A DNA stretch of 44,552 nt, taken from contig JAMWDD010000001.1 in assembly GCA_023818885.1 (NCBI GenBank), positions 1-44,552 on the forward strand, given 5' to 3'. Shown here piece by piece: positions 1 through 14,420 of this stretch; within the stretch, counting starts at the first letter, position 1; each line of letters begins with the position of its first letter. The DNA comes from Candidatus Omnitrophota bacterium (GTDB taxonomy: Bacteria > Omnitrophota > Gorgyraeia > Gygaellales > JAMWDD01). The notes below the pieces were generated by a model that had not been told where the DNA came from, made no database searches, and worked only from the letters and a program-made list of their open reading frames with translations. Both the position numbers and the translations under genes were made by a program.

Positions 1-282
1 TTGATTACGACTTTAATTCCCGGGGTAGACATTAACCCGGCAAGGACTTATTGTGTCATAGTCGGGCCGCCGATAATGTATAGGTTTGTGATTGCAGAAG
101 TCCTTAAAAAATCCATTCCTGACCATCAGATTATTGTTTCTTTAGAAAGAAGGATGAAATGCGGCTTGGGAAAATGTGGGCATTGCCAGATTGAAGGTGT
201 GTATGTCTGCCAATCCGGGCCGGTATTTAATTATGCGCAACTAAAAAATTTTAAAGGAGAGTGTCATGAAAAAGCAGCCTAA
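1..282 (+). CDS. [NiFe] hydrogenase (sulfhydrogenase/group 3b-type) gamma subunit, C-terminal fragment; 5' end lies outside the window
   Basis: C-terminal 2Fe-2S motif of PyrK/HydG-like FAD/NAD oxidoreductases (MKCGLGKCGHCQ...VCQSGPVF). Sits directly upstream of the delta and alpha subunits and overlaps the next gene by 17 nt. Confidence 0.7.
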   Translation: MITTLIPGVDINPARTYCVIVGPPIMYRFVIAEVLKKSIPDHQIIVSLERRMKCGLGKCGHCQIEGVYVCQSGPVFNYAQLKNFKGECHEKAA

Positions 283-1030
283 GCCAAAAGTGGCATTTTT
301 TGATTTTACTGACTGCGAAGGATGCCAGCTGCAGTTTGCCAATATGGGCGAGGTGCTTCTTGAGATAGCCGAATTAGTAGATATCGTAAATTTCCGCGAG
401 ATTATGTCAGAACAAGGAGAAGATTATGATATTGCCTTTGCGGAGGGAAGCATTACCACGGATAACGACGTAAAACGCATTAAAAAGATAAGAGAAAAGG
501 CAAAAGTAGTGGTTGCGCTGGGCGCCTGCGCTACTCTTGGCGGAGTAAATGGAATGAAAAACCGCACTCCTCTTGATGTGGCTAAAGAAAGAGTTTACGC
601 AGATAAAGCCGACACGGTTAACACCATAAAGGCCATGCCAGTGCATGAGGTAGTTAAGGTTGATTATTTTATTCATGGCTGCCCGGTATATATCCCGGAG
701 GTAATTACAGTTATTAAATGCATATTGATGAGTAGGCCTTATGTTGTGCCAAATTATCCGGTTTGCGCAGAATGTAAGATGAATGAAAATGTCTGCCTTT
801 ACGAGAAAGAACAAGAATGTATGGGGCCGGTAACGCGGGCAGGGTGTAATTCCTGGTGTATAAATAATGGAAACCGCTGCTATGGTTGCCGCGGATTAGT
901 AGATAATCCAGCGGCTGATGCACAGAAAGATATTTTATTAAAATATGGCTTAAAGATGGATGAGATTTTAAAGCATTTTACATTGTATAATGATTCCTTG
1001 GGAGACAAGTATGAGCAGCAACTCAAGTAA
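266..1030 (+). CDS. [NiFe] hydrogenase small (delta) subunit, NuoB/20-kDa-like Fe-S protein
   Basis: N-terminal FFDFTDCEGCQ and GACATLGG motifs plus a Cys-rich C-terminus (CAECK..C, GCNSWC, CYGC). About 254 aa, the size typical of cytoplasmic group 3 small subunits. Lies immediately upstream of the large subunit. Confidence 0.85.
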   Translation: MKKQPKPKVAFFDFTDCEGCQLQFANMGEVLLEIAELVDIVNFREIMSEQGEDYDIAFAEGSITTDNDVKRIKKIREKAKVVVALGACATLGGVNGMKNRTPLDVAKERVYADKADTVNTIKAMPVHEVVKVDYFIHGCPVYIPEVITVIKCILMSRPYVVPNYPVCAECKMNENVCLYEKEQECMGPVTRAGCNSWCINNGNRCYGCRGLVDNPAADAQKDILLKYGLKMDEILKHFTLYNDSLGDKYEQQLK

Positions 1031-2357
1031 AACCAAAGATGTAAAGATAGATGTGCATTATCTTACACGCGTAGAAGGTCACGGAAACATTGTAGTAGAT
1101 ACTAAAGACGGAAAGCTTACTAAATGCGAATTTCAGGTGATTGAATCCCCGCGTTTCTTTGAATCTATGCTGGTGGGAAGGGTTATCTGGGAGGCGCAGC
1201 ATATTACCAGCCGTATCTGCGGCATCTGCGCCTGTGGCCACAGTTTAGCCAGCATTAAGGCCGCTGAGGATGCCTTAGGCATAACGCCTGCGGATGAAAC
1301 TGTGATGTTGAGAAAACTACTTCTTTATACTGAGCAGATGGACAGCCATATCCTGCATATTTATTTTCTGGTTGCCCCGGACCTTTTGGGCGTAAAGAGT
1401 ATTATGCCTCTTATTAAGACGCACCGTTCTATTATTGATATGGCCCTTAAGATGAAGCGGATGAGCGATTATGCCGGCGAGGTTTTGGCAGGCAGGCATA
1501 TCCATCCTATAAGTTATGTAATCGGAGGGCTGACGCAGCTGCCGGCGCGGGAGAATTTAGAAAAACTTTATAAGATGATGCTTGAGTGCCGTAAATACGG
1601 TGATGAGACGGTAAAGATCCTTAAAAAATTGAAATTTCCGGAATTCCAGCGGCCAACACAATATCTATCCCTTACCCATGATGGAGAGTATGCGATGTAT
1701 GACGGAGATTTGGTTGTAAACGGAAAAAATAGAACAAAATACAACAAATATAGAGAAGTACTCACAGAAAAAGTAGTGGACTATTCCCGGGCAAAAATCG
1801 CCACCATCAATAATAAACCCTACGCCGTAGGAGCTTTAGCCAGATTTAATAACAACAGCGATAAATTACATAAGAAGGCAAAGGCAGTTGCGGAGAGTTT
1901 AAGGTTAAAAGCACCCTGCCACAATCCCTATTTAAATACAGTCGCACAAATGGTGGAATGGGTGCATTGTTTGGAGGAATCCATTGCCATCATAGAGAAA
2001 ATCTTAAAAGAGGGGCTTAATGAAAAAAAGATAGTGGTCTCATCTTGGCCGAAGAAAAGCCAAATAGATAAGATTAAATATAGACCTAATACCGGAATCG
2101 GTTGTGTAGAAGTTCCCCGCGGTTCGTTATTCCATGAATATACAATAGACGACACCGGCCATATTACCGCAGCAAATTGTGTAATTCCCACAAATCAAAA
2201 TATGGGTAATCTCGAAGAGGATATGCGTAAGCTCGTTCCAGAATTATTAGGTAGGCATAGTCGAGAAGAAATTACTCAAGCACTGGAAATGCTTGCCCGC
2301 GCTTACGATCCTTGCATATCCTGCGCTACCCACCTTTTAGACGTAAGATTTGTCTGA
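1011..2357 (+). CDS. [NiFe] hydrogenase large (alpha) subunit
   Basis: N-terminal Ni-binding motif RICGICACGHS and C-terminal DPCISCATH, with both Cys encoded by TGC (not Sec). LTRVEGHG is present near the N-terminus. The ORF is open from 990, but ATG 1011 follows GGGAG (1000-1004) at 6 nt spacing. Confidence 0.92.
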   Translation: MSSNSSKTKDVKIDVHYLTRVEGHGNIVVDTKDGKLTKCEFQVIESPRFFESMLVGRVIWEAQHITSRICGICACGHSLASIKAAEDALGITPADETVMLRKLLLYTEQMDSHILHIYFLVAPDLLGVKSIMPLIKTHRSIIDMALKMKRMSDYAGEVLAGRHIHPISYVIGGLTQLPARENLEKLYKMMLECRKYGDETVKILKKLKFPEFQRPTQYLSLTHDGEYAMYDGDLVVNGKNRTKYNKYREVLTEKVVDYSRAKIATINNKPYAVGALARFNNNSDKLHKKAKAVAESLRLKAPCHNPYLNTVAQMVEWVHCLEESIAIIEKILKEGLNEKKIVVSSWPKKSQIDKIKYRPNTGIGCVEVPRGSLFHEYTIDDTGHITAANCVIPTNQNMGNLEEDMRKLVPELLGRHSREEITQALEMLARAYDPCISCATHLLDVRFV

Positions 2358-2823
2358 TAATAAAATTGCCGTAATCGGTTTAGGAAATACGTTAAGAAGA
2401 GACGACGGAATCGGAATATTGGTTCTGGAATCCCTACGCAACTCTTATAGAAAGCAAGGCATAGATTACCTCAATTTCGGAATTGCCAGTATTGACCTTT
2501 TGCATCGGCTACAAAACTACAAAAAAGCCCTGCTGATTGATGGGATAAATGCTTCTTTAGAGCCTGGCGAAATCAAGATCTTTAAATTGAGCGAAGTAGT
2601 TAATATTTTAAAAAAGCAGATTACGTCTTCACATGAATTTAATCTTAAAGATGTTTTTATCCTTTATAAAAAACTCGGTTTAAAAACAGAAGTTTTTATT
2701 GCTGGCATCCAAGTGCAAGATGTTTCTTTTGCCTCGGGGTTAACCGAAAAATTGAAAAAGAGTTATGATAATATAGTGGAAAAGGTAAATAATTTTATTG
2801 ATAAAGAACTTTTAGGCAAATAA
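2350..2823 (+). CDS. hydrogenase maturation endopeptidase (HycI/HoxW/HyaD family)
   Basis: IAVIGLGNTLRRDDGIG motif, about 157 aa. TTG start overlaps the large-subunit stop by 8 nt. Confidence 0.85.
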   Translation: MSDNKIAVIGLGNTLRRDDGIGILVLESLRNSYRKQGIDYLNFGIASIDLLHRLQNYKKALLIDGINASLEPGEIKIFKLSEVVNILKKQITSSHEFNLKDVFILYKKLGLKTEVFIAGIQVQDVSFASGLTEKLKKSYDNIVEKVNNFIDKELLGK

Positions 2824-2825
2824 AG

Positions 2826-4004
2826 ATGTGTTATGCCATACCCGGTAAAGTAGTCGGGATAAAAGATAATATTGTCACAGTAGATTATTTTGGTGAAAAA
2901 AAGAAAGCCAAAAATGATTTCTATAGTTTAGAGCGGGGAGAATATGTCTATGCGCAGGGCGGTTTTGTAGTACAAAAAGTTTCTATTCAGGAAGCAGAAT
3001 CTATTTTAGATACGTGGAAAGAATTATTTTTTCAGTTACAAAAAACAGACCTTAAACTTGCGCAGAATCCCAAAACGCTTTATCAAAGGGCAAATTATAT
3101 CCGCAACAAATACTTAGGCAACGCCTGCTGTATCCACGGGATAATTGAGTTTTCCAATTATTGCCGTTGCGACTGTCTTTATTGTGGGATAAGAAAAAGT
3201 AATTCTGAGCTTTTACGTTATCGCATGGAACCCGATGAGATAGTAAATGGGGCGGTTGAGGCAGCAAAAAATCTGGGGTTTAAGGCGCTAGTCTTACAGT
3301 CAGGAGAAGACCTCTGGTATGACGATGATAAGCTTGTAGAGATAATAAATAAGATTAGAGAAAAAGCCGCACTTTTGCTTGTTTTAAGTATCGGGGAGAG
3401 GGATGTGAAAACTTACAAAAAGCTTTATAAGACTGGGGCAAGAGGTGTACTTTTGCGTTTTGAAACAAGCAACGCTTCTTTATACCAAAAGTTGCGGCCT
3501 AAACATAAATTAGAAGATCGCATTGAACTGCTCAAGAAATTGCGCGAAGTGGGCTATCTAATTTTTACCGGATTCTTAATCGGCCTTCCTGGGCAAACCA
3601 AAGAGGATATAGACAATGATATAAAGCTTACTGCGTCGCTCGGTACAGATATGTTTTCCTTTGGGCCATTTCTGCCCCATCCCCAAACACCTTTAGGTAA
3701 ATATCCCGCACCGTCTTTAGATGCGGTTTTAAGTATTATTGCTAATACCCGCTTAGCCAATCCTGAAGCAAAAATCCTGGTTACTACTGCCTTGGAAACG
3801 CTGGATAAAGAAAACGGGATGAAGTTTGGCCTTTTAGCCGGCGGTAATTCGTTGATGATAAACTTAACTCCCCAAAAATATCAGCGGCTCTATGATATTT
3901 ATCCGGATAGGGTAGGCATTGAAGAAGACATTTCCCGAAGAATTGACTCCACAATCAAACTCCTACATTCCCTTGGTCGCGCGCCGGCTGATTTAGGGCT
4001 TTAG
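2826..4004 (+). CDS. fusion protein: N-terminal HypC/HupF-type [NiFe] hydrogenase chaperone domain joined to a HydE/BioB-clade radical SAM domain
   Basis: aa 1-70 MCYAIPGKVV...GEYVYAQGGFVV..QEAESIL carry the HypC signature, including Cys2. aa ~100-392 carry C113x3C117x2C120 (nt 3162-3185), YRMEPDEIV, LQSGED, RFETSN, GLPGQT and FGPFLPHPQTPL, which resemble HydE. One continuous ORF starting 3 nt after the protease gene. Confidence 0.8.
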   Translation: MCYAIPGKVVGIKDNIVTVDYFGEKKKAKNDFYSLERGEYVYAQGGFVVQKVSIQEAESILDTWKELFFQLQKTDLKLAQNPKTLYQRANYIRNKYLGNACCIHGIIEFSNYCRCDCLYCGIRKSNSELLRYRMEPDEIVNGAVEAAKNLGFKALVLQSGEDLWYDDDKLVEIINKIREKAALLLVLSIGERDVKTYKKLYKTGARGVLLRFETSNASLYQKLRPKHKLEDRIELLKKLREVGYLIFTGFLIGLPGQTKEDIDNDIKLTASLGTDMFSFGPFLPHPQTPLGKYPAPSLDAVLSIIANTRLANPEAKILVTTALETLDKENGMKFGLLAGGNSLMINLTPQKYQRLYDIYPDRVGIEEDISRRIDSTIKLLHSLGRAPADLGL

Positions 4005-4012
4005 ATATCTCT

Positions 4013-4042
4013 TGCAAGCTTTACCATCCTGAGGTTATAATA
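4013..4042 (+). promoter_or_regulatory. candidate sigma70-type promoter for the nadE operon (TTGCAA-18-TATAAT)
   Basis: TTGCAA at 4013-4018 and TATAAT at 4037-4042, inside the 60-nt gap upstream of nadE. Confidence 0.4.
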
Positions 4043-4064: not shown

Positions 4065-5765
4065 ATGATTTTACGCATAGGTATGGCACAAGTCAATAGC
4101 TGGTTAGGAGATTTTAAATATAATACTGATAAAATCTGCAAGTTTATCCAGAAGGCAAAAGAAGGCCGGTGCCATATTGTGGTCTTTCCCGAATTAGCCA
4201 TATCAGGATACCCACCCGAGGATTTAATCTACAAAAGTGATTTTTTAAGAAGAAATAAAGAGAGTCTTGATTTGGTTAAAGAGTATTCCCAAGATATAGG
4301 TGTAATTGTTGGTTTTATAGAACAAGACAAAGGTAAAATTTTTAATAGCGCTGCCTTTATTTATAATAAAAAATTGGTAGGGATTTATCGGAAGATGCAG
4401 TTGCCAAATTACGGCGTATTTGATGAAAAGCGATATTTTTTTAGTGGTGAAGATTTTAAGATTTATGATTTTTGCGGAGTTAAAATTGGTCTGGATATCT
4501 GGGTAGAAGACGATTCGATCGCCCTACAGGCAAAGGCAGGGGTTCAATTAAGTTTTGTCATCAATGCCTCGCCGTTTCATATGGGAAAGCTCGATTCCCG
4601 GATAAATATTTTAAAAGAACAAGCAAAAAAGAATAAAGTTTATATTACCTATGTTAACCTTGTGGGTGGCCAGGATGAGTTAGTTTTTGACGGAAGGAGC
4701 ATTTTCATTGATACGAAAGGTAAAATCCTTGCTCAGGCCAAGGCATTTGAAGAAGACTTATGTATTTTTGATATTGATTCAAAGATTTTACCCAAGAAAA
4801 AAGTAAATAAAAAGAAACTAGTAAGAATTCCGGTAGAAAATATAACCACAAATATAACAAAGACGCCCCTCTCTTCCAAAATAAGGATTAGACTTAATTC
4901 CATTGAAGAGGTCTACAAGGCCTTAGTTTTAGGTCTGAGGGATTATGTAATAAAGAATGGTTTTAGAAAAGTAGTTTTGGGTTTAAGCGGAGGTATAGAT
5001 TCTGCTTTAACTTGTGTTTTGGCAGTGGATGCTTTGGGGAGGGAAAATGTAGTGGGGGTGTTTATGCCTTCACAGTATACTTCTCTGGAGAGCAGAGAAG
5101 ATGCCCAAACCTTGGCTAATAATTTAGGTATAGATTTTTGCACTATTTATATCCAGGGAATTTTTGAAAAGTATCTTGATGAGTTAAGAGAGCAGTTCCG
5201 GGGGACAGCGCCTAACATTGCTGAGGAAAACATTCAGGCGCGCATCAGAGGCAATATCTTAATGGCACTTTCTAATAAATTTGGCTGGCTGGTTTTAACT
5301 ACCGGAAATAAAAGCGAAGTAAGTGTGGGCTATTGCACTTTGTATGGCGATACCGCCGGTGGTTTTGCACCGCTTAAAGATGTGCCAAAGACAATGGTTT
5401 ATGAACTTGCTCGCTACAGCAATTTGCTTTCGGAAAAGCCGGCTATTCCGGAAAGGGTATTTACTAAAGCACCTACTGCAGAATTAAAAGAAAACCAGAA
5501 AGACCAGGATATACTTCCGCCTTACGAAGTTTTGGACCCGATACTTAAGGCATACATTGAGGATGACCTCTCAATAGAAAAGATTATTGCGCTGGGTTTT
5601 GATAAAGATGTAGTAAGGCGCACGATTGAGATGGTAGATAGGAGTGAATATAAACGTCGGCAGTCACCGCCGGGAATTAAAATTACGCCTAAGACCTTTG
5701 GGAGAGATCGCCGCATGCCGATTACGAATAGGTTTAGGGAAGAGAGAAGTGGGGAGTGTAGATAA
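4065..5765 (+). CDS. nadE: two-domain NAD+ synthetase (N-terminal CN-hydrolase/glutaminase-like domain plus C-terminal NAD synthetase)
   Basis: C-terminal SGGIDS PP-loop, NIQARIRGN, LTTGNKSE and PTAEL motifs. The N-terminal domain has FPE (E43) and YRK (K110), but the expected catalytic Cys position reads Gly (KIGLDIW). Confidence 0.9.
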   Translation: MILRIGMAQVNSWLGDFKYNTDKICKFIQKAKEGRCHIVVFPELAISGYPPEDLIYKSDFLRRNKESLDLVKEYSQDIGVIVGFIEQDKGKIFNSAAFIYNKKLVGIYRKMQLPNYGVFDEKRYFFSGEDFKIYDFCGVKIGLDIWVEDDSIALQAKAGVQLSFVINASPFHMGKLDSRINILKEQAKKNKVYITYVNLVGGQDELVFDGRSIFIDTKGKILAQAKAFEEDLCIFDIDSKILPKKKVNKKKLVRIPVENITTNITKTPLSSKIRIRLNSIEEVYKALVLGLRDYVIKNGFRKVVLGLSGGIDSALTCVLAVDALGRENVVGVFMPSQYTSLESREDAQTLANNLGIDFCTIYIQGIFEKYLDELREQFRGTAPNIAEENIQARIRGNILMALSNKFGWLVLTTGNKSEVSVGYCTLYGDTAGGFAPLKDVPKTMVYELARYSNLLSEKPAIPERVFTKAPTAELKENQKDQDILPPYEVLDPILKAYIEDDLSIEKIIALGFDKDVVRRTIEMVDRSEYKRRQSPPGIKITPKTFGRDRRMPITNRFREERSGECR

Positions 5766-6583
5766 TGGGGAATGATTTAAGGGAAAAAGTGGCTAAATTA
5801 AAATCTATCTTACAGAAAATGGATTCTGTTTTAGTCGCTTATTCAGGAGGCGTGGACAGCACATTTTTATTGAAAATTGCTTGCGATGTGTTAGGCAAGG
5901 ATAAGGTTTTGGCGGTGACAGCAGATTCAGCAACTTATCCTAAAAGCGAATTAAATTTTGCCAAAAAAATGGCGGCTAGATTTGGCGCCAAGCATTTAAT
6001 TATTAAAACAAATGAATTACACAATCCAGAATTTACCAATAATCCAGTTAATCGTTGTTATTATTGTAAACGCGAGCTTTTTTCTCAGTTAAAAAAGATT
6101 GCCCGCTCCAGAAAAATGAATTATATATGCGATGCGGCACAAATTTCTGATAATGCTGATTTTCGTCCGGGAGATAAAGCGAAAAAGGATTTAGGCATTC
6201 GTTCGCCATTGAGAGAGGTAGGATTTACCAAAGAAGAAATTCGTAAATTAAGCAGAAAGTTTAAGCTTCCGACTTGGAATATGCCGTCACAAGCCTGTCT
6301 CGCATCTAGGTTTCCGTATGGCACTAAAATAACCGAAACGCTTTTAGCGAGAGTAGAGAAGGCAGAAACGTTGCTTAAAAATTTAGGTTTTTCACAAGTA
6401 AGGGTGCGTCATTATGATAGCATGGCCAGAATTGAAGTGGAGAGGCAGAAAATTCCGCTTTTGGTTTCTAAGCTAAAAGGAAAGCAATTAGCCAGGATAA
6501 AAAATATAGGTTATAAATATATTACCGTAGATTTAGAAGGTTATAGGACTGGCAGTTTAAACGAGGAGATGAGGAAGATATGA
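5765..6583 (+). CDS. larE: LarE-like PP-loop ATP-dependent sulfur transferase (TIGR00268-type)
   Basis: AYSGGVDSTFLL PP-loop, CYYC (C98, C101) and SQACLASRFPYG (C178). About 272 aa. Overlaps the nadE stop by 1 nt. Confidence 0.75.
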   Translation: MGNDLREKVAKLKSILQKMDSVLVAYSGGVDSTFLLKIACDVLGKDKVLAVTADSATYPKSELNFAKKMAARFGAKHLIIKTNELHNPEFTNNPVNRCYYCKRELFSQLKKIARSRKMNYICDAAQISDNADFRPGDKAKKDLGIRSPLREVGFTKEEIRKLSRKFKLPTWNMPSQACLASRFPYGTKITETLLARVEKAETLLKNLGFSQVRVRHYDSMARIEVERQKIPLLVSKLKGKQLARIKNIGYKYITVDLEGYRTGSLNEEMRKI

Positions 6584-7743
6584 AACGCCTATATTTTGAT
6601 TATGCGGCAACTACACCTACGGATCCAGAAGTTTTAAAGGCAATGCAGCCTTATTTTTTTGAGAAATTCGGCAATCCTTCCAGCATCCATTCCTTTGGTC
6701 AGGAGGCAAAAAAGGCAGTTGAAGATAGCCGTGAGATCCTTGCTGAATTTATGGGCGCAAAACCCGATGAAATTGTCTTTACTTCGGGTGGGACCGAATC
6801 CAATAATTTTGCTTTAAAGGGCGTGGCTTATGCTCTAGAGTCAAAAGGTAATCATATAATTATTAGCGCGATAGAACATCATGCTATAACTGAAGCTGCA
6901 AAATTCTTAGAAAGACAGGGTTTTAAAATAACTTTGGTGGGTGTGGATAGATACGGGCTGGTAAATCCGGAAGATATTAAAAAGGCAATTACGGATAAGA
7001 CCATTCTCATCTCGATAATGCACGCCAATAATGAGATTGGGACAATCCAGCCGATTGCGGAGATTGGAAAGATTGCCAGAGAAAAAGGTATTTATTTTCA
7101 TACTGACGCGGTGCAAACAGTAGGACACATCCCGGTAAATGTCAATGAATTGAATGTAGATTTACTGTCACTTTCTGCCCATAAATTTTATGGGCCAAAA
7201 GGCGTTGGCGCTTTATATATTAGAAAAGGCACGCGCATAAATCGTTTCCTTCATGGCGGCGATCAAGAAAAGGGAAGGCGCGCCTCCACTCACAATACTG
7301 CAGGCATCGTGGGTTTGGGTCGTGCCATTGAACTCTGTAAGGAGAAGATGAACGAGGAGGCGCTAATTCAGCGGGGGTGGCGAGATCGCTTGATTAAAGA
7401 GATTTCTGCTCGCATCCCTGATGTATTTTTAAATGGCCATCCGTCACTACGACTTCCTAACAATATAAATTTTTCTATAAAATATATTGAAGGTGAGTCT
7501 ATGATTTTACATTTAGATATGTTGGGTATCGCCGTTTCTACAGGCTCAGCCTGCACTTCGGCTTCACTTGAACCCTCGCATGTGCTTTTAGCCATAGGTT
7601 TATCTCATGAATTAGCCCACGGTTCTCTGCGGATAACTTTTGGTAGATATAATACCGAAAGCGATATAGATTATCTTTTAGAGAATCTTCCTAAAGTCGT
7701 CGAGACCCTGCGCAAGATGTCTCCGCTTTATGAAAAGAAATAA
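6580..7743 (+). CDS. nifS: cysteine desulfurase (NifS/IscS class)
   Basis: PLP-lysine motif SAHKFYGPKG, active-site loop STGSACTS and the HANNE motif. ATGA overlap with the upstream gene. Confidence 0.9.
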   Translation: MKRLYFDYAATTPTDPEVLKAMQPYFFEKFGNPSSIHSFGQEAKKAVEDSREILAEFMGAKPDEIVFTSGGTESNNFALKGVAYALESKGNHIIISAIEHHAITEAAKFLERQGFKITLVGVDRYGLVNPEDIKKAITDKTILISIMHANNEIGTIQPIAEIGKIAREKGIYFHTDAVQTVGHIPVNVNELNVDLLSLSAHKFYGPKGVGALYIRKGTRINRFLHGGDQEKGRRASTHNTAGIVGLGRAIELCKEKMNEEALIQRGWRDRLIKEISARIPDVFLNGHPSLRLPNNINFSIKYIEGESMILHLDMLGIAVSTGSACTSASLEPSHVLLAIGLSHELAHGSLRITFGRYNTESDIDYLLENLPKVVETLRKMSPLYEKK

Positions 7744-8699
7744 TGCGCGATAAAATCTTAGAATATTTAAAAAAGACCGATAGTCATATCTCTGGTGAGG
7801 AACTCAGCCAGCGCTTAAAGATAAGCCGGGCAGGGATTTGGAAACATATTCAAGAATTAAGAGAATCCGGCTATGAAATCGTTGCTGTGCCGCATCTGGG
7901 TTATCGACTCTTTTCTATCCCGGATAAACTCTTGCCGCAGGAAATAGCATGCGGCCTTAAGACAAAATCATTTGGATGTAAGATCCGCTATTATGAGATG
8001 GTTAGTTCAACGATGGATATAGCGATGCAGGCAGGTTTAGAAGGTGCTTTAGAGGGTGAACTTATCTTAGCTGAAGGCCAGAGCAGGGGTCGGGGTAGAT
8101 TAGGCCGCAGCTGGAATTCACCAAAATATAAAGGGATTTATATGTCTTTAATCTTGCGGCCAAAATTGCTTCCTCAAGAAACCCCTTGTCTTACATTGCT
8201 CAGTGCGGTTTCTGTGTGTGAGGCAATAAAAGAGGATGTCGGTTTAGACACAAATATAAAGTGGCCTAATGATATCGTCATCCATGAAAAGAAAGTAGGC
8301 GGAATTTTGACAGAATTAAATGCGGAGATGGATATTGTACATTTTGTGGTGATTGGTATCGGTATCAATGTGAATAATGACAAATCACAGCTTCCCCTGC
8401 ATGCTACATCTTTAAAAGAAGAAAAAAAAGAAGTGGTTAATCGCGTTACATTGTTAAGAAAAATTTTAGAAAAATTGGAGATAAATTATGATATTTTTAA
8501 AAAGCACGGATTTCACCCGATTACTGAGAAATGGCGCAGTTTTTCAACTACCTTAGGTTCGCGTATTAAGGTGACCTGCCAGAAGGAACACATTGAAGGC
8601 GAGGCGATAGATATAGATATTGACGGCGGACTTATAATAAGGAAAGATTCAGGTTTTATTGAGAAGGTTATGGCGGGGGATGTGGTCAAGGTAAGATAA
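7743..8699 (+). CDS. birA: bifunctional biotin-[acetyl-CoA-carboxylase] ligase / biotin operon repressor
   Basis: N-terminal winged-HTH (ISGEELSQRLKISRAGIWKHIQELRESGYEI), GRGRLGRSW biotin-binding loop and KWPNDI. Confidence 0.92.
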   Translation: MRDKILEYLKKTDSHISGEELSQRLKISRAGIWKHIQELRESGYEIVAVPHLGYRLFSIPDKLLPQEIACGLKTKSFGCKIRYYEMVSSTMDIAMQAGLEGALEGELILAEGQSRGRGRLGRSWNSPKYKGIYMSLILRPKLLPQETPCLTLLSAVSVCEAIKEDVGLDTNIKWPNDIVIHEKKVGGILTELNAEMDIVHFVVIGIGINVNNDKSQLPLHATSLKEEKKEVVNRVTLLRKILEKLEINYDIFKKHGFHPITEKWRSFSTTLGSRIKVTCQKEHIEGEAIDIDIDGGLIIRKDSGFIEKVMAGDVVKVR

Positions 8700-8789: not shown

Positions 8790-9764
8790 ATGCAAAAGCT
8801 AATTAGTAATTTGACCTCTAAAGTTCTTAGCCAGAGGGATATTTCAAAAGACGAAGCCTTAAGTTTATTGCAAGTTAAAGGTAGCGATTTATTTTACCTT
8901 TTTGCTTCTGCCAATTCTATCCGCCAGCATTTTAGGGGAAATAAGATAAGTCTCTGCACCATAACCAATGCCAAAAGCGGAGATTGTTTTGAGGACTGTA
9001 AATTCTGCGCCCAGTCGCGTTATCACAATACAAATATTGCGGTTTATCCTTTGATTTCCGTTGATGAGATGTTGAGGCGGGCGGAACAGGCAATAAGGGC
9101 GGGAACGCATCGGTTTTGTCTGGTGACCAGTGGCGGCAGTCTGGATGATAAGGAGATGGATTTGATATGCGAAGGTATCAGCCGCATAAAGAATAAATTC
9201 CCACATATAAAACTGGATGCCTCCTTAGGTAAGATTGATTATCCTGCGGCGAAGCGTCTTAAAGAAGCGGGTCTGAATAGATACAATCATAATTTAGAGA
9301 CCGTGCCGGAATATTTTTCTCAGATTTGCTCAACGCATACCTATAGGGATAGATTGGAGACTATATCTATTTTGAAACAGGCGGGGTTGGAAATTTGTTG
9401 TGGTGGAATATTAGGGATGGGAGAGAACGAAACCCAGCGCGTTGAATTTGGTTTTATTCTAAAAGGACTTGATTTAGATTCTATTGCTTTAAATTTCTTA
9501 AATCCTATCCCTGGAACAGGGCTGGCGCAAAGAGAGCCATCCCCTGCCTTAGAATTAATAAAGATAGCAGCGATCTTGCGTTTTATTTTGCCCGACAAGG
9601 AAATTCGTCTTTGCGGAGGGAGGGAAAAGAATTTAAGAGGTCTCCAGGCGCTTGCGTTTTGTGCCGGAATAGATGCAACGATTATTGGCGATTATCTCAC
9701 GACCAAAGGCAATCCCGTTAAAGAGGACCTGGAGATGTTAATTGACTTGGGTTTTTCCGTCTGA
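8790..9764 (+). CDS. bioB: biotin synthase
   Basis: Radical SAM CFEDCKFCAQS, LVTSGG, YNHNLET and GGILGMGE motifs. Confidence 0.92.
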   Translation: MQKLISNLTSKVLSQRDISKDEALSLLQVKGSDLFYLFASANSIRQHFRGNKISLCTITNAKSGDCFEDCKFCAQSRYHNTNIAVYPLISVDEMLRRAEQAIRAGTHRFCLVTSGGSLDDKEMDLICEGISRIKNKFPHIKLDASLGKIDYPAAKRLKEAGLNRYNHNLETVPEYFSQICSTHTYRDRLETISILKQAGLEICCGGILGMGENETQRVEFGFILKGLDLDSIALNFLNPIPGTGLAQREPSPALELIKIAAILRFILPDKEIRLCGGREKNLRGLQALAFCAGIDATIIGDYLTTKGNPVKEDLEMLIDLGFSV

Positions 9765-9792
9765 AGCTCAATCTTTAAGAGCCAGGCTTGAA

Positions 9793-10959
9793 ATGTTTGA
9801 TTTAAGAGAAGAACTGGATATTTTAGAGAGTAAGGGCCTGAGGCGCAAACTTTCTTTATTAGAAAGCGTGCAGGCAGAGGAGATTATTATTGAAGGCAAA
9901 AATTGCCTTAATTTATGCTCAAATAACTATCTGGGTCTTGCTTCTGAACCGCGCCTTAAAGCGGCAGCCATTGAGGCAATTAAAAACTATGGTTTAGGTA
10001 GCGGTGCCTCACGCCTGGTATGCGGCAATCATCGTCTTTATAAAGAATTGGAAGAGAAAATTGCCGAATTTAAAGAGACACCGTCTTCTTTAGTTTTTAA
10101 TTCTGGCTATGCGGCTAATTTAGGGATTATTTCGGTCTTGGTAGATGAAAAGGATATCGTTTTTTCTGATAAACTTAATCATGCCTCAATCATTGACGGA
10201 ATCCTTTTAAGCCGAGCAAAATTTAGGCGCTATCCGCATAAAGATATTGAGGCATTAGAGGCAATGCTTAAGGACTCAGGGAATTTTAGAAGAAGATTGA
10301 TTGTTACGGATACGGTCTTTAGTATGGATGGCGATATTGCGCCTTTAACTGAAATTGTAGAATTAGCAAGAAAATATAATGCCAAAGTTATGGTAGATGA
10401 AGCGCATGCCACCGGCGTTTTTGGCAAGAGCGGCAGAGGGATAGTAGAGCATTTCAACCTTAAAAATGAGATATTTATTCAGATGGGGACGTTGAGTAAA
10501 GCCATCGGTTGCTTGGGGGCATATGTTTGCGCTGGTAAGGATACCATTGATTACCTGATAAATAAGGCGCGCAGTTTAATTTATACTACTGCCTTGCCTC
10601 CTGCCATATTAGCTGCAAGTATCAAGGCAGTTGAGATAATTCAGCAGGAACCAGAGAGAAGAAAAGTGCTTTTTGAAAATGCCGAATTTTTTAGGAGTAA
10701 CTTAAGAAGATTTGGACTCAATACCCTGGATTCACAAAGCCCAATTATACCGGTTGTGGTAGGGAGGGTAGATTTGGCCGTAGAATTTAGTAAGCGATTA
10801 TTTAATGAAGGTATATTTTGCCCTGCCATTCGGCCACCTACGGTTCCCAAAGGTGATGCGCGTCTAAGGATGACCGTGATGGCAACACATAAGAAAGAAC
10901 ACTTAGAATTCGCTTTGGAAAAAATTAAAAAGATTGCCAAAGATTTAGGGTTGCTTTAG
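9793..10959 (+). CDS. bioF: 8-amino-7-oxononanoate synthase
   Basis: SNNYLGL, GSGASRLVCGN, DEAHATG and GTLSKA (PLP Lys) motifs. The ORF is open from TTG 9742, but ATG 9793 (MFDLREELD...) matches typical BioF N-termini. Confidence 0.88.
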   Translation: MFDLREELDILESKGLRRKLSLLESVQAEEIIIEGKNCLNLCSNNYLGLASEPRLKAAAIEAIKNYGLGSGASRLVCGNHRLYKELEEKIAEFKETPSSLVFNSGYAANLGIISVLVDEKDIVFSDKLNHASIIDGILLSRAKFRRYPHKDIEALEAMLKDSGNFRRRLIVTDTVFSMDGDIAPLTEIVELARKYNAKVMVDEAHATGVFGKSGRGIVEHFNLKNEIFIQMGTLSKAIGCLGAYVCAGKDTIDYLINKARSLIYTTALPPAILAASIKAVEIIQQEPERRKVLFENAEFFRSNLRRFGLNTLDSQSPIIPVVVGRVDLAVEFSKRLFNEGIFCPAIRPPTVPKGDARLRMTVMATHKKEHLEFALEKIKKIAKDLGLL

Positions 10960-11631
10960 ATGAAAACTCTTGTATTTATTCATGGCTGGGCATCGTCTCC
11001 AGAAGTTTGGTATAAACAGAAAGAATATTTTAAAAAATACAATATCCTTCTGCCGGAATTAGATTTAGATAATCTTAAAGACAACGCAGACAAAATTTAT
11101 TCTCTGTGCAAAGGCAAAGGTAATCTTGCGATTATCGCCTGGTCAATGGGTTGGCTGGTAACTTTAAAATTAATGGAATACTTCCCTTTAGATATCAAGG
11201 CATTAGTTAGTATCTGTGGAACGCCCAAATTTATCTCTGAAGATTACCTTGATGGCGGCATAAGAAGACAGCAATTACGTGCTTTACGTTTGGCGCTTAA
11301 AAAAGATTTTACGTCTGCTTTAAATAGATTCTATCAACAGCATCGCATACCTCTTAGGGCAGAGAATTTTCTGAATAAAAAAGAGCTTTGGATTAAGCAG
11401 TTAGATATTTTAGAAAAAGAGGACTTAAGAAAAAATCTTTCTTTAATTGAATGTCCGACACTATTTATCACCGGCCAGGATGATATGCTTTCTCCAATAT
11501 CTTTGCAAAATTATATGAGTAATTACGTTAAAAACTCGGTTATCAGAGTAGTTGAATTTAGTGCCCATGCTCCTTTTATCGATAACAGTAAGGAGATAAA
11601 CAATTTTATAAAAGGGACAGTTCTTGCATAA
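10960..11631 (+). CDS. bioH: pimeloyl-[ACP] methyl ester esterase, alpha/beta hydrolase (BioH-like)
   Basis: FIHGWASS, nucleophile elbow AWSMGW, and a C-terminal SAHAPFI His motif as in E. coli BioH. Positioned between bioF and bioC. Confidence 0.75.
   Translation: MKTLVFIHGWASSPEVWYKQKEYFKKYNILLPELDLDNLKDNADKIYSLCKGKGNLAIIAWSMGWLVTLKLMEYFPLDIKALVSICGTPKFISEDYLDGGIRRQQLRALRLALKKDFTSALNRFYQQHRIPLRAENFLNKKELWIKQLDILEKEDLRKNLSLIECPTLFITGQDDMLSPISLQNYMSNYVKNSVIRVVEFSAHAPFIDNSKEINNFIKGTVLA

Positions 11632-14420
<2,789 letters not shown>

Follow-up and report, generated by a model that had tools for sequence, protein, structure and literature searches.

A widespread HypC–HydE fusion protein encoded at the end of a [NiFe] hydrogenase operon in a Candidatus Omnitrophota bacterium

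Main

HydE was previously known only from the assembly of iron-iron ([FeFe]) hydrogenases. Here we analyze a gene of a Candidatus Omnitrophota bacterium in which a HydE-type radical S-adenosylmethionine (SAM) domain follows a HypC-type domain and which ends a nickel-iron ([NiFe]) hydrogenase operon. The gene lies on the plus strand at 2826..4004 of a 44,552-nucleotide stretch, hereafter the window (contig JAMWDD010000001.1, assembly GCA_023818885.1), and its product is predicted to be one conserved two-domain maturation protein of 392 aa, with a long helix that rigidly joins the HypC-type domain to the HydE-type barrel.

Results

The operon at the start of the window reads gamma, delta, alpha, hycI, fusion, all on the plus strand. 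Only the 3' end of the hydrogenase gamma subunit gene is present (1..282; FAD/NAD, DHODB_Fe-S_bind type), its 5' part being lost at the contig end; this open reading frame (ORF) clusters with the first gene of L006/L009 among the relatives, which bears NAD_binding_1 and DHODB_Fe-S_bind. The small (delta) subunit (266..1030) matches Pfam Oxidored_q6 with 89.7 bits. The large (alpha) subunit (990..2357; Pfam NiFeSe_Hases, 129.6 bits) is nearest to group 3b sulfhydrogenase types, its top NCBIfam models being the sulfhydrogenase ShyA/HydA alpha subunits at 270/258 bits, under the equivalog cut-offs. Because it carries RICGICACGH and DPCISCATH and then a 7-residue C-terminal tail, LLDVRFV, its [NiFe] site is normal and its end can be cleaved by a protease. 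Read from its first ATG, the large-subunit ORF overlaps the small-subunit gene by 41 nt (window 990-1030) and gains about 18 residues ahead of the usual start region (KIDVHYLTRVEGHG); the true start may be further downstream.

A HycI-type hydrogenase maturation endopeptidase of 157 aa follows (2350..2823; Pfam HycI, 63.6 bits; E. coli HycI, E 1e-4 by tblastn). The fusion ORF begins with an ATG 2 nt past the TAA of this gene, and the uninterrupted 392-aa frame described in an earlier note on this DNA stands. No hydG or hydF was found in the 44.5-kb window, and tblastn with the E. coli proteins found no hypD, hypE or hypF there, as that note had said. Between the fusion stop codon and nadE lies a promoter-like match, TTGCAA-18-TATAAT (4012..4041). 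It comes from a scan that returned 20 such sites against 16.5 expected, the promoter and terminator counts across the window being at chance level, and it is weakly consistent with an operon end at 4004.

The HypC-type domain (aa 1-64; 2826..3017, plus strand) reads MCYAIPGKVV at its N-terminus, with Met1-Cys2, Pro6 and Gly7. It passes Pfam HupF_HypC PF01455 over residues 1-64 (47.7 bits; gathering score 28.5), which bears out the HypC signature with Cys2 that had been read by eye, and narrowly misses NCBIfam TIGR00074, by 2-3 bits (44.6-46.0 bits against a cut-off of 48). T. kodakarensis HypC (PDB 2z1c) matches it with E 7e-8. We scored residue conservation over 161 unique fusions: Each of Met1, Cys2 and Pro6 occurs in 160/161, and Gly7 in 152/161. 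A DYFGE motif at residues 20-24 is specific to the family; together with Trp64, Phe68 and Leu71 it is 76-99% conserved, the lowest value being that of Asp20, for which Glu is the alternative. His at E. coli HypC position 51 is a conserved feature of the HypC family. The corresponding residue is Gln44 (YAQGG) in the window protein, and Gln occupies the position in 157/161 fusions.

The fusions fall into two length classes of about 430 aa and 392 aa, the window protein belonging to the latter. Between the classes the N-domain is 53% identical and the enzyme domain 50%. The N-domain, conserved as well as the enzyme domain yet only ~24% identical to E. coli HypC, is a specialized HypC subtype under strong constraint and not a decaying appendage. 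In the AlphaFold2 (AF2) model it has strands at 6-13, 16-21, 24-29, 40-44 and 47-52 and a helix from residue 54, with a predicted local distance difference test (pLDDT) score of ~87-95, which predicts a small oligonucleotide/oligosaccharide-binding (OB)-fold barrel with a C-terminal helix, as in HypC.

The HydE-type radical-SAM (beta/alpha)8 barrel covers aa ~101-392 (3126..4004, plus strand). Its CX3CX2C cluster motif, formed by C113, C117 and C120 (3162..3185), lies where it had been placed from the sequence and is invariant in 161/161 fusions. Pfam Radical_SAM PF04055 matches residues 107-268, and BATS is weak at 19.5 bits, under 22.2. On residues ~80-390, NCBIfam HydE TIGR03956 gives 268.2 bits, a narrow pass over its cut-off of 254.6; among the relatives, L030 reaches 264 bits and L026, with 245 bits, falls under the cut-off. 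T. maritima HydE matches residues 83-388 with E 1.2e-69. The earlier assignment of this half to HydE within its clade is upheld by these matches and by the fold comparison below.

Other family identities were rejected. PylB gave 144.6 bits against a cut-off of 348.2, and its structure is only the second-best fold match; HmdB gave 66.2 bits against 320.9 and ThiH 54.6 against 380, with the HydG model likewise far under its cut-off. For BioB, TIGR00433 gave 89 bits against 225. The true bioB, with its own bio operon, lies elsewhere in the window (8790..9764; TIGR00433, 384 bits), apart from the fusion as the earlier note had it.

All of the top ten Foldseek matches to the fusion model are T. maritima HydE (E ~1e-32; target-normalized template modelling (TM)-score 0.82-0.88), the complex-B-bound structures 7o1o and 8qmk being among the top matches. 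T. maritima HydE Met224 and Met291, which bind and relay an Fe(CO)2CN species (PMC10114646), align with Met276 (>=90% conserved) and Met344 (invariant) of the fusion. The auxiliary-cluster cysteines Cys311/319/322 are replaced by Gly364, Arg372 and Ser375. Auxiliary Fe-S cluster cysteines are not universal among HydE.

The connecting region (aa ~65-100; 3018..3125, plus strand) comprises, by AF2 secondary structure, the end of a long helix (54-79) and then the first HydE helix. In the alignment of fusions W64, F68 and L71 of this connecting helix are conserved and D75 is invariant or nearly so. The ~430-aa class has about 40 extra residues in the connecting region, which resemble the N-terminal helices of T. 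maritima HydE and are lost in the 392-aa class. The AF2 model, built from 77 homologues, consists of five strands (6-52), the single long helix (54-79) and the barrel after it, with a mean pLDDT of 94.4 and a predicted TM-score (pTM) of 0.93 for the whole two-domain chain. Because the pTM is so high for the whole chain, the small domain is predicted with confidence to be docked rigidly on the barrel.

The fusion is genuine and widespread. The same architecture occurs in at least 239 protein clusters and 429 metagenome stretches, and PF01455 and PF04055 are both present in 120/120 of the best matches to the window protein (61-100% identity) and in 120/120 of the best matches to a gammaproteobacterial member. 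Relatives are encoded in 46 GTDB species genomes, of which 43 give matches covering query residues 1-389 or more and three end at a contig edge. These carriers are labelled mostly Omnitrophota, plus Elusimicrobia, Desantisbacteria, Saganbacteria, Margulisiibacteriota, Spirochaetota and Gamma-/Deltaproteobacteria. An assembly or frameshift artefact joining separate hypC and hydE genes, for which the earlier note had asked for a check, has practically no probability left: nothing was found in its favour, the same continuous ORF recurs in hundreds of independent assemblies (NCBI, JGI, ENA, Logan) and the linker residues are conserved. Contigs with unexpected labels, namely 'Candidatus Micrarchaeota archaeon' (L024, L053) and 'Planctomycetales/Planctomycetia' (L013, L020, L043, L047), could reflect mis-binning or horizontal transfer.

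A metagenome scan with the N-domain alone returned the 429 stretches; of the 80 taken, 73 run into HydE and 7 end at a contig edge; no free-standing copy of the fusion-type HypC appears among the 73 judgeable loci. In a neighbour-joining tree of the HydE domains of 50%-identity representatives, 20/20 fusion sequences fall in one clade of 25 within HydE. Of the remaining five, P0130 and P0146 have a truncated or mis-started HypC-like N-terminus, P0128 and P0143 are shorter and begin inside the HydE region, and P0138 (365 aa) resembles an ordinary HydE. The tree and the alignments point to a single origin within HydE followed by spread across phyla, and to a fusion that is ancient, strictly conserved and obligate in every judgeable locus.

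Some proteins carry further fusions. P0121 (906 aa) and P0137 (881 aa) are HypC–HydE–HydG triple fusions that pass PF01455, TIGR03956 (348 / 371 bits) and TIGR03955 (607 / 631 bits), their HydE parts scoring far above the 268 bits of the window protein. P0148 (803 aa) is a HydE–HydG fusion without HypC. In ordinary-clade HydEs P0173 and P0192 (also P0175 and P0206) an N-terminal PF11823 Se_S_carrier domain with a conserved Cys precedes the enzyme. This domain is unrelated to HypC, and HydE has therefore gained small thiol-carrier modules N-terminally more than once. An unassigned N-terminal domain of ~120 aa is present in HydE representatives P0147, P0166 and P0261.

To describe the genomic setting we called and clustered the ORFs of 127 loci (47 distinct genome loci and 80 of the 429 metagenome stretches, ~10 kb on each side) and named recurrent clusters by Pfam and NCBIfam. 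A [NiFe] marker (large or small subunit, hycI, hypA or hypB) occurs within 10 kb in 28/47 genome and 48/80 metagenome loci (76/127). Bona fide hydG lies in the flank within 10 kb in 21/47 and 42/80 loci and directly adjoins the fusion in 17/47 and 42/80 (59/127); the neighbouring hydG is genuine (TIGR03955, 537 bits against a cut-off of 312). Both a [NiFe] marker and hydG are found within 10 kb in 12/47 and 21/80 loci, and neither in 10/47 and 11/80.

Typical orders are beta, gamma, delta, alpha, hycI, hypA, fusion, (rex), hydG; a Mbh/Mrp-type group 4 cluster, ferredoxin, (hycI), hydG, fusion; hycI, fusion, hypA, hypB; and hypA, hypB, fusion with hydG on the opposite strand. The gene directly preceding the fusion is usually hycI or hypA, and gene order thus places the fusion in the slot usual for hypC in [NiFe] operons. 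Fusions linked to hycI, hypA or hypB occur in dozens of loci, in several phyla and with two different [NiFe] groups. The interpretation in the earlier note is thus supported in part: the [NiFe] operon link is conserved, but hydG adjacency and triple fusions occur in the family, and a radical-SAM step directed purely at [NiFe] is a possibility only. The note had also asked whether the fusion always neighbours group 3 [NiFe] hydrogenases: group 3b is found in the window and in Gammaproteobacteria, and group 4 and purely [FeFe] contexts occur elsewhere.

In L001/L012 and L010 the order is hydG, fusion, rex, hydF (TIGR03918, 522 bits), then NuoF-like and HydA genes, with no [NiFe] gene within 10 kb. 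Among the genome loci, hydF is present in 2 distinct ones; HydA motifs were also seen in L034, 8 kb downstream of the fusion. The absence of [FeFe] machinery noted earlier hence holds for the window and fails for its relatives. The earlier note had further held that a complete hydEFG and [FeFe] hydrogenase set in the genome would make this an ordinary HydE placed here by chance; because of the hydG adjacency, the hydF and [FeFe] neighbours and the triple fusions in relatives, many carriers may well have such a set.

Searches of the flanks with E. coli Hyp proteins (tblastn) and motif scans, in loci many of which hold hycI, hypA or hypB, found no hypD, hypE, hypF or second or free hypC in 663 kb around the 47 genome loci and 596 kb around the 80 metagenome loci (~1.26 Mb). 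The hypA genes adjoining the fusion are short (~96 aa; L043 1330-1620 and 15 other loci, cluster 6) and match only the N-terminal 70 positions of HypA models, passing Pfam and staying well under the NCBIfam equivalog cut-off. In the Omnitrophota loci L011 (7577-8356) and L022 a ThiF/MoeB-type adenylyltransferase gene follows hycI and immediately precedes hydG and the fusion; such a gene also lies near hydG in L025 (15213-16028).

A large gammaproteobacterial sub-clade has its own operon (L136 3322-11299; L137 3291-11284; also L032 and L030), which runs rubredoxin, PAS histidine kinase, 3b hydrogenase, hycI, a 239-aa DsbD_2-like membrane protein, fusion and housekeeping genes, with no hydG, hypA or hypB within 10 kb. 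The HydE domain here keeps 92-94 of 95 conserved columns. Two peculiarities were seen: the otherwise conserved Glu191 is Leu or Ser in all members of the sub-clade examined, and in L030 a toxin-antitoxin (AbiE) insert separates hycI and the fusion.

Downstream of the fusion the window continues with housekeeping genes: nadE, a PP-loop ATPase, a NifS-like gene, birA, bioB, bioF, BioH-like, BioC-like and bioA, and further on mnmA, nadA, glnA, feoB, miaB, miaA and hflX. The order fusion, nadE, PP-loop ATPase, NifS-like cysteine desulfurase, birA is kept in the lineage of the window (window 4065-8699; L006/L009, L016, L017). In the nearest relative (79% identity) the downstream genes match those of the window, but the upstream hydrogenase is of group 4 Mbh/Mrp type as opposed to 3b. 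The bio genes bioB/bioF/bioC/bioA span 8790-14420, and the BioH-like and BioC-like genes both score under the equivalog cut-offs. At 12414-14420 (plus strand) a 668-aa ORF has a BioA match (TIGR00508, 556 bits) that starts only at residue 234; with its N-terminal ~220 aa it could be a BioD–BioA fusion.

Discussion

Databases already contain proteins of this architecture under the labels HydE, biotin synthase or HypC. In the literature that we searched there was no functional study of a HypC–HydE fusion, and the sole mention was one passing sentence on an 'unusual HydE-HypC fusion' in a 2026 genome preprint on Ca. Centrionella anaeramoebae, where its gene shares a [NiFe] hydrogenase operon with those of the protease HybD, HypA and HypB; the genome is reduced, only a [NiFe] hydrogenase is reported and HypD/HypE/HypF are unmentioned (bioRxiv 10.64898/2026.04.11.717937). 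Judging by that description it is of the same family, and it probably belongs to the gammaproteobacterial sub-clade. New here is the analysis of the HypC–HydE family, the sequences having been known under misleading names and mentioned once.

We tentatively favour a reading, possible rather than probable, in which a HypC-type carrier, holding iron through Cys2, serves the large subunit of the neighbouring [NiFe] enzyme and is coupled to the organometallic chemistry of HydG and HydE. The HypC domain would hold an iron unit through Cys2 and hand it to the neighbouring apo-large subunit, with nickel insertion and HycI cleavage coming after this handover. The HydE barrel would do its usual chemistry, in which the 5'-deoxyadenosyl radical reacts with an Fe–CO/CN unit, such as HydG makes, that is bound to a cysteine thiolate. 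The covalent link would channel water-unstable organometallic iron between the HydG/HydE machinery and the HypC-type carrier, and in carrier organisms the [NiFe] and [FeFe] assembly lines would therefore share Fe–CO/CN building blocks. Material would pass between the domains in one direction or the other, with the [NiFe] site, the H-cluster or both as its final destination.

Coupling to HydG is indicated by the adjacency of hydG (17/47 and 42/80 loci) and by the triple fusions; coupling to [NiFe] by the marker counts, the recurring hycI and hypA orders and the gammaproteobacterial and Centrionella operons. The sequence conservation of Met276 and Met344 and the PF11823 carrier domains on other HydEs point the same way. 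Several points weigh against it. Neither hydG nor hydF is present in the 44.5 kb of the window, and L001/L012 and L010 are purely [FeFe]. The HydG product has two CO and one CN, and the [NiFe] site needs one CO and two CN. Judging from the residue at the His51 position, the N-domain with its Gln may not bind iron in the fashion of HypC. Finally, each domain may simply serve a complete pathway of its own.

This last point is the main rival, which is fully viable and in our judgement rather unlikely: an ordinary HypC would work with HypD/E/F for [NiFe] and an ordinary HydE with HydG/HydF for [FeFe], the fusion serving co-expression only. Omnitrophota commonly encode both hydrogenase types, group 4 [NiFe] and A3 [FeFe], according to a survey that names hydrogenase types and not maturation genes (PMC10066038), HydF proteins annotated as Omnitrophota exist, and hydF and hydA stand beside hydG and the fusion in L001/L010/L012. 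Each half passes a model of its family, and all known [NiFe] systems use HypCDEF (PMC12130793). However, a fusion that served co-expression only should tend to break apart or recombine, yet this one is monophyletic and obligate in the loci examined; its connecting helix is conserved and its docking predicted to be rigid; its N-domain is specialized (Gln for His51, DYFGE); and some proteins have fused to HydG as well. The HydE half is moreover fully conserved in the gammaproteobacterial operons and present in Centrionella, for which only a [NiFe] hydrogenase is reported. Because the fusion is obligate, its interface conserved and its HydE half intact in [NiFe]-only operons, a pure co-expression fusion is the less likely explanation.

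The HypC-like domain could also have been wholly recruited to [FeFe] H-cluster assembly, its proximity to [NiFe] genes merely reflecting the clustering of hydrogenase genes. The in-cis carrier would then bring iron to the dangler site of HydG or ferry the Fe(Cys)(CO)2(CN) synthon from HydG to HydE. HydG builds Fe(II)(Cys)(CO)2(CN) and hands it to HydE, and recent work with NfuA has demonstrated that H-cluster maturation needs an iron carrier (PMC12501116); complex-B decays in water, and the auxiliary-cluster cysteines that the fusion does not have are proposed to line its entry channel (PMC10114646). That hydG is the commonest immediate neighbour, that triple fusions and the pure [FeFe] context of L001/L010/L012 exist and that other HydEs bear an N-terminal Se_S_carrier domain with a conserved Cys all fit. 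We nevertheless regard this recruitment as quite unlikely, given that the fusion follows hycI, hypA or hypB in the same operon in dozens of loci, several phyla and two [NiFe] groups, that no other hypC was seen in those operons and that the gammaproteobacterial operons have no hydG within 10 kb.

More doubtful still, and the boldest of these explanations, is a radical-SAM route to the [NiFe] cofactor that is independent of HypD/E/F, in which HydG would make CO and CN from tyrosine, the HydE domain would process the Fe unit on the fused HypC Cys2, and HypA, HypB and HycI would complete maturation. The blank tblastn searches for HypD/HypE/HypF in 663 kb and 596 kb of flanks, the frequent operons of large subunit, hycI, hypA, fusion and hydG, and the Centrionella maturation set of HybD, HypA, HypB and fusion only (bioRxiv 10.64898/2026.04.11.717937) are what would be expected of such a route. 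The search spanned ~10 kb per side, however, and hypDEF are often unlinked from hypAB elsewhere; the ligand stoichiometry of the HydG product mismatches the [NiFe] site, the gammaproteobacterial fusions have no hydG nearby, and the fusion strictly retains the canonical MCxxxPG N-terminus, a proposed contact site for HypD. A further and highly novel reading, which we consider unlikely, is that HydG and HypC–HydE supply CO-ligated (perhaps also CN-ligated) iron, loaded on the fused HypC Cys2, to the [NiFe] cofactor and are the missing anaerobic carbonyl source, possibly without HypD/E/F. If true, cofactor assembly in each of the three hydrogenase classes would involve a radical-SAM enzyme of the HydE/BioB type.

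The fusion bears on two questions, the CO source of [NiFe] enzymes in anaerobic maturation, which is unresolved (PMC12130793), and the delivery of the HydG product to HydE, an acknowledged open question (PMC10114646). As an obligate, widespread, single-origin fusion it is a natural experiment that physically links the [NiFe] and [FeFe] maturation systems, and it occurs in hundreds of uncultured anaerobes. The fusion suggests that the two assembly lines share iron–CO/CN chemistry. Structural genes, hycI, hypA/B, fusion and hydG form a compact, expressible operon that makes both questions testable. For annotation, the labels "HydE" and "biotin synthase" hide a distinct family, and hydE alone should not be taken as evidence of an [FeFe] hydrogenase.

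Compared with HypC/HybG/HupF proteins (E. coli HypC; T. kodakarensis HypC, 2z1c), the fusion keeps MC(x)3PG with Cys2, passes the PF01455 threshold, is predicted to have the five-stranded OB fold with a C-terminal helix, and follows hycI or hypA beside a [NiFe] large subunit with a cleavable C-terminal tail. It differs in its Gln for His51, its DYFGE motif and a score just under the TIGR00074 cut-off; moreover, its N-domain is never free-standing, and no hypD, hypE or hypF stands beside the fusion in any locus examined. With HydE (T. maritima; PDB 3iiz, 7o1o, 8qmk) it shares the CX3CX2C motif, the (beta/alpha)8 barrel, ~38-48% identity, a pass of TIGR03956 and the equivalents of Met224/Met291, and hydG often neighbours its relatives. 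Unlike HydE, it has an added N-terminal HypC domain and no auxiliary-cluster cysteines, its 392-aa class is without the ~40 residues resembling N-terminal HydE helices, and the window fusion sits in a [NiFe] operon, with no hydF/hydG in 44 kb and a score barely above the equivalog cut-off.

The Centrionella 'HydE-HypC fusion', going by its description, matches the present one in architecture and in its position within a [NiFe] operon, and the preprint differs from the present work in offering no analysis of the fusion's distribution, partners or function. PF11823–HydE proteins (P0173, P0192) likewise have a small Cys-bearing carrier-type domain ahead of HydE, although its fold and family are unrelated to HypC and no [NiFe] link is known. 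Chlamydomonas HydEF is a fusion of consecutive H-cluster maturases, as is P0148, and in both the joined proteins hand an organometallic iron intermediate to each other. The HypC–HydE–HydG proteins extend this series, with the difference that the added module comes from the [NiFe] maturation system.

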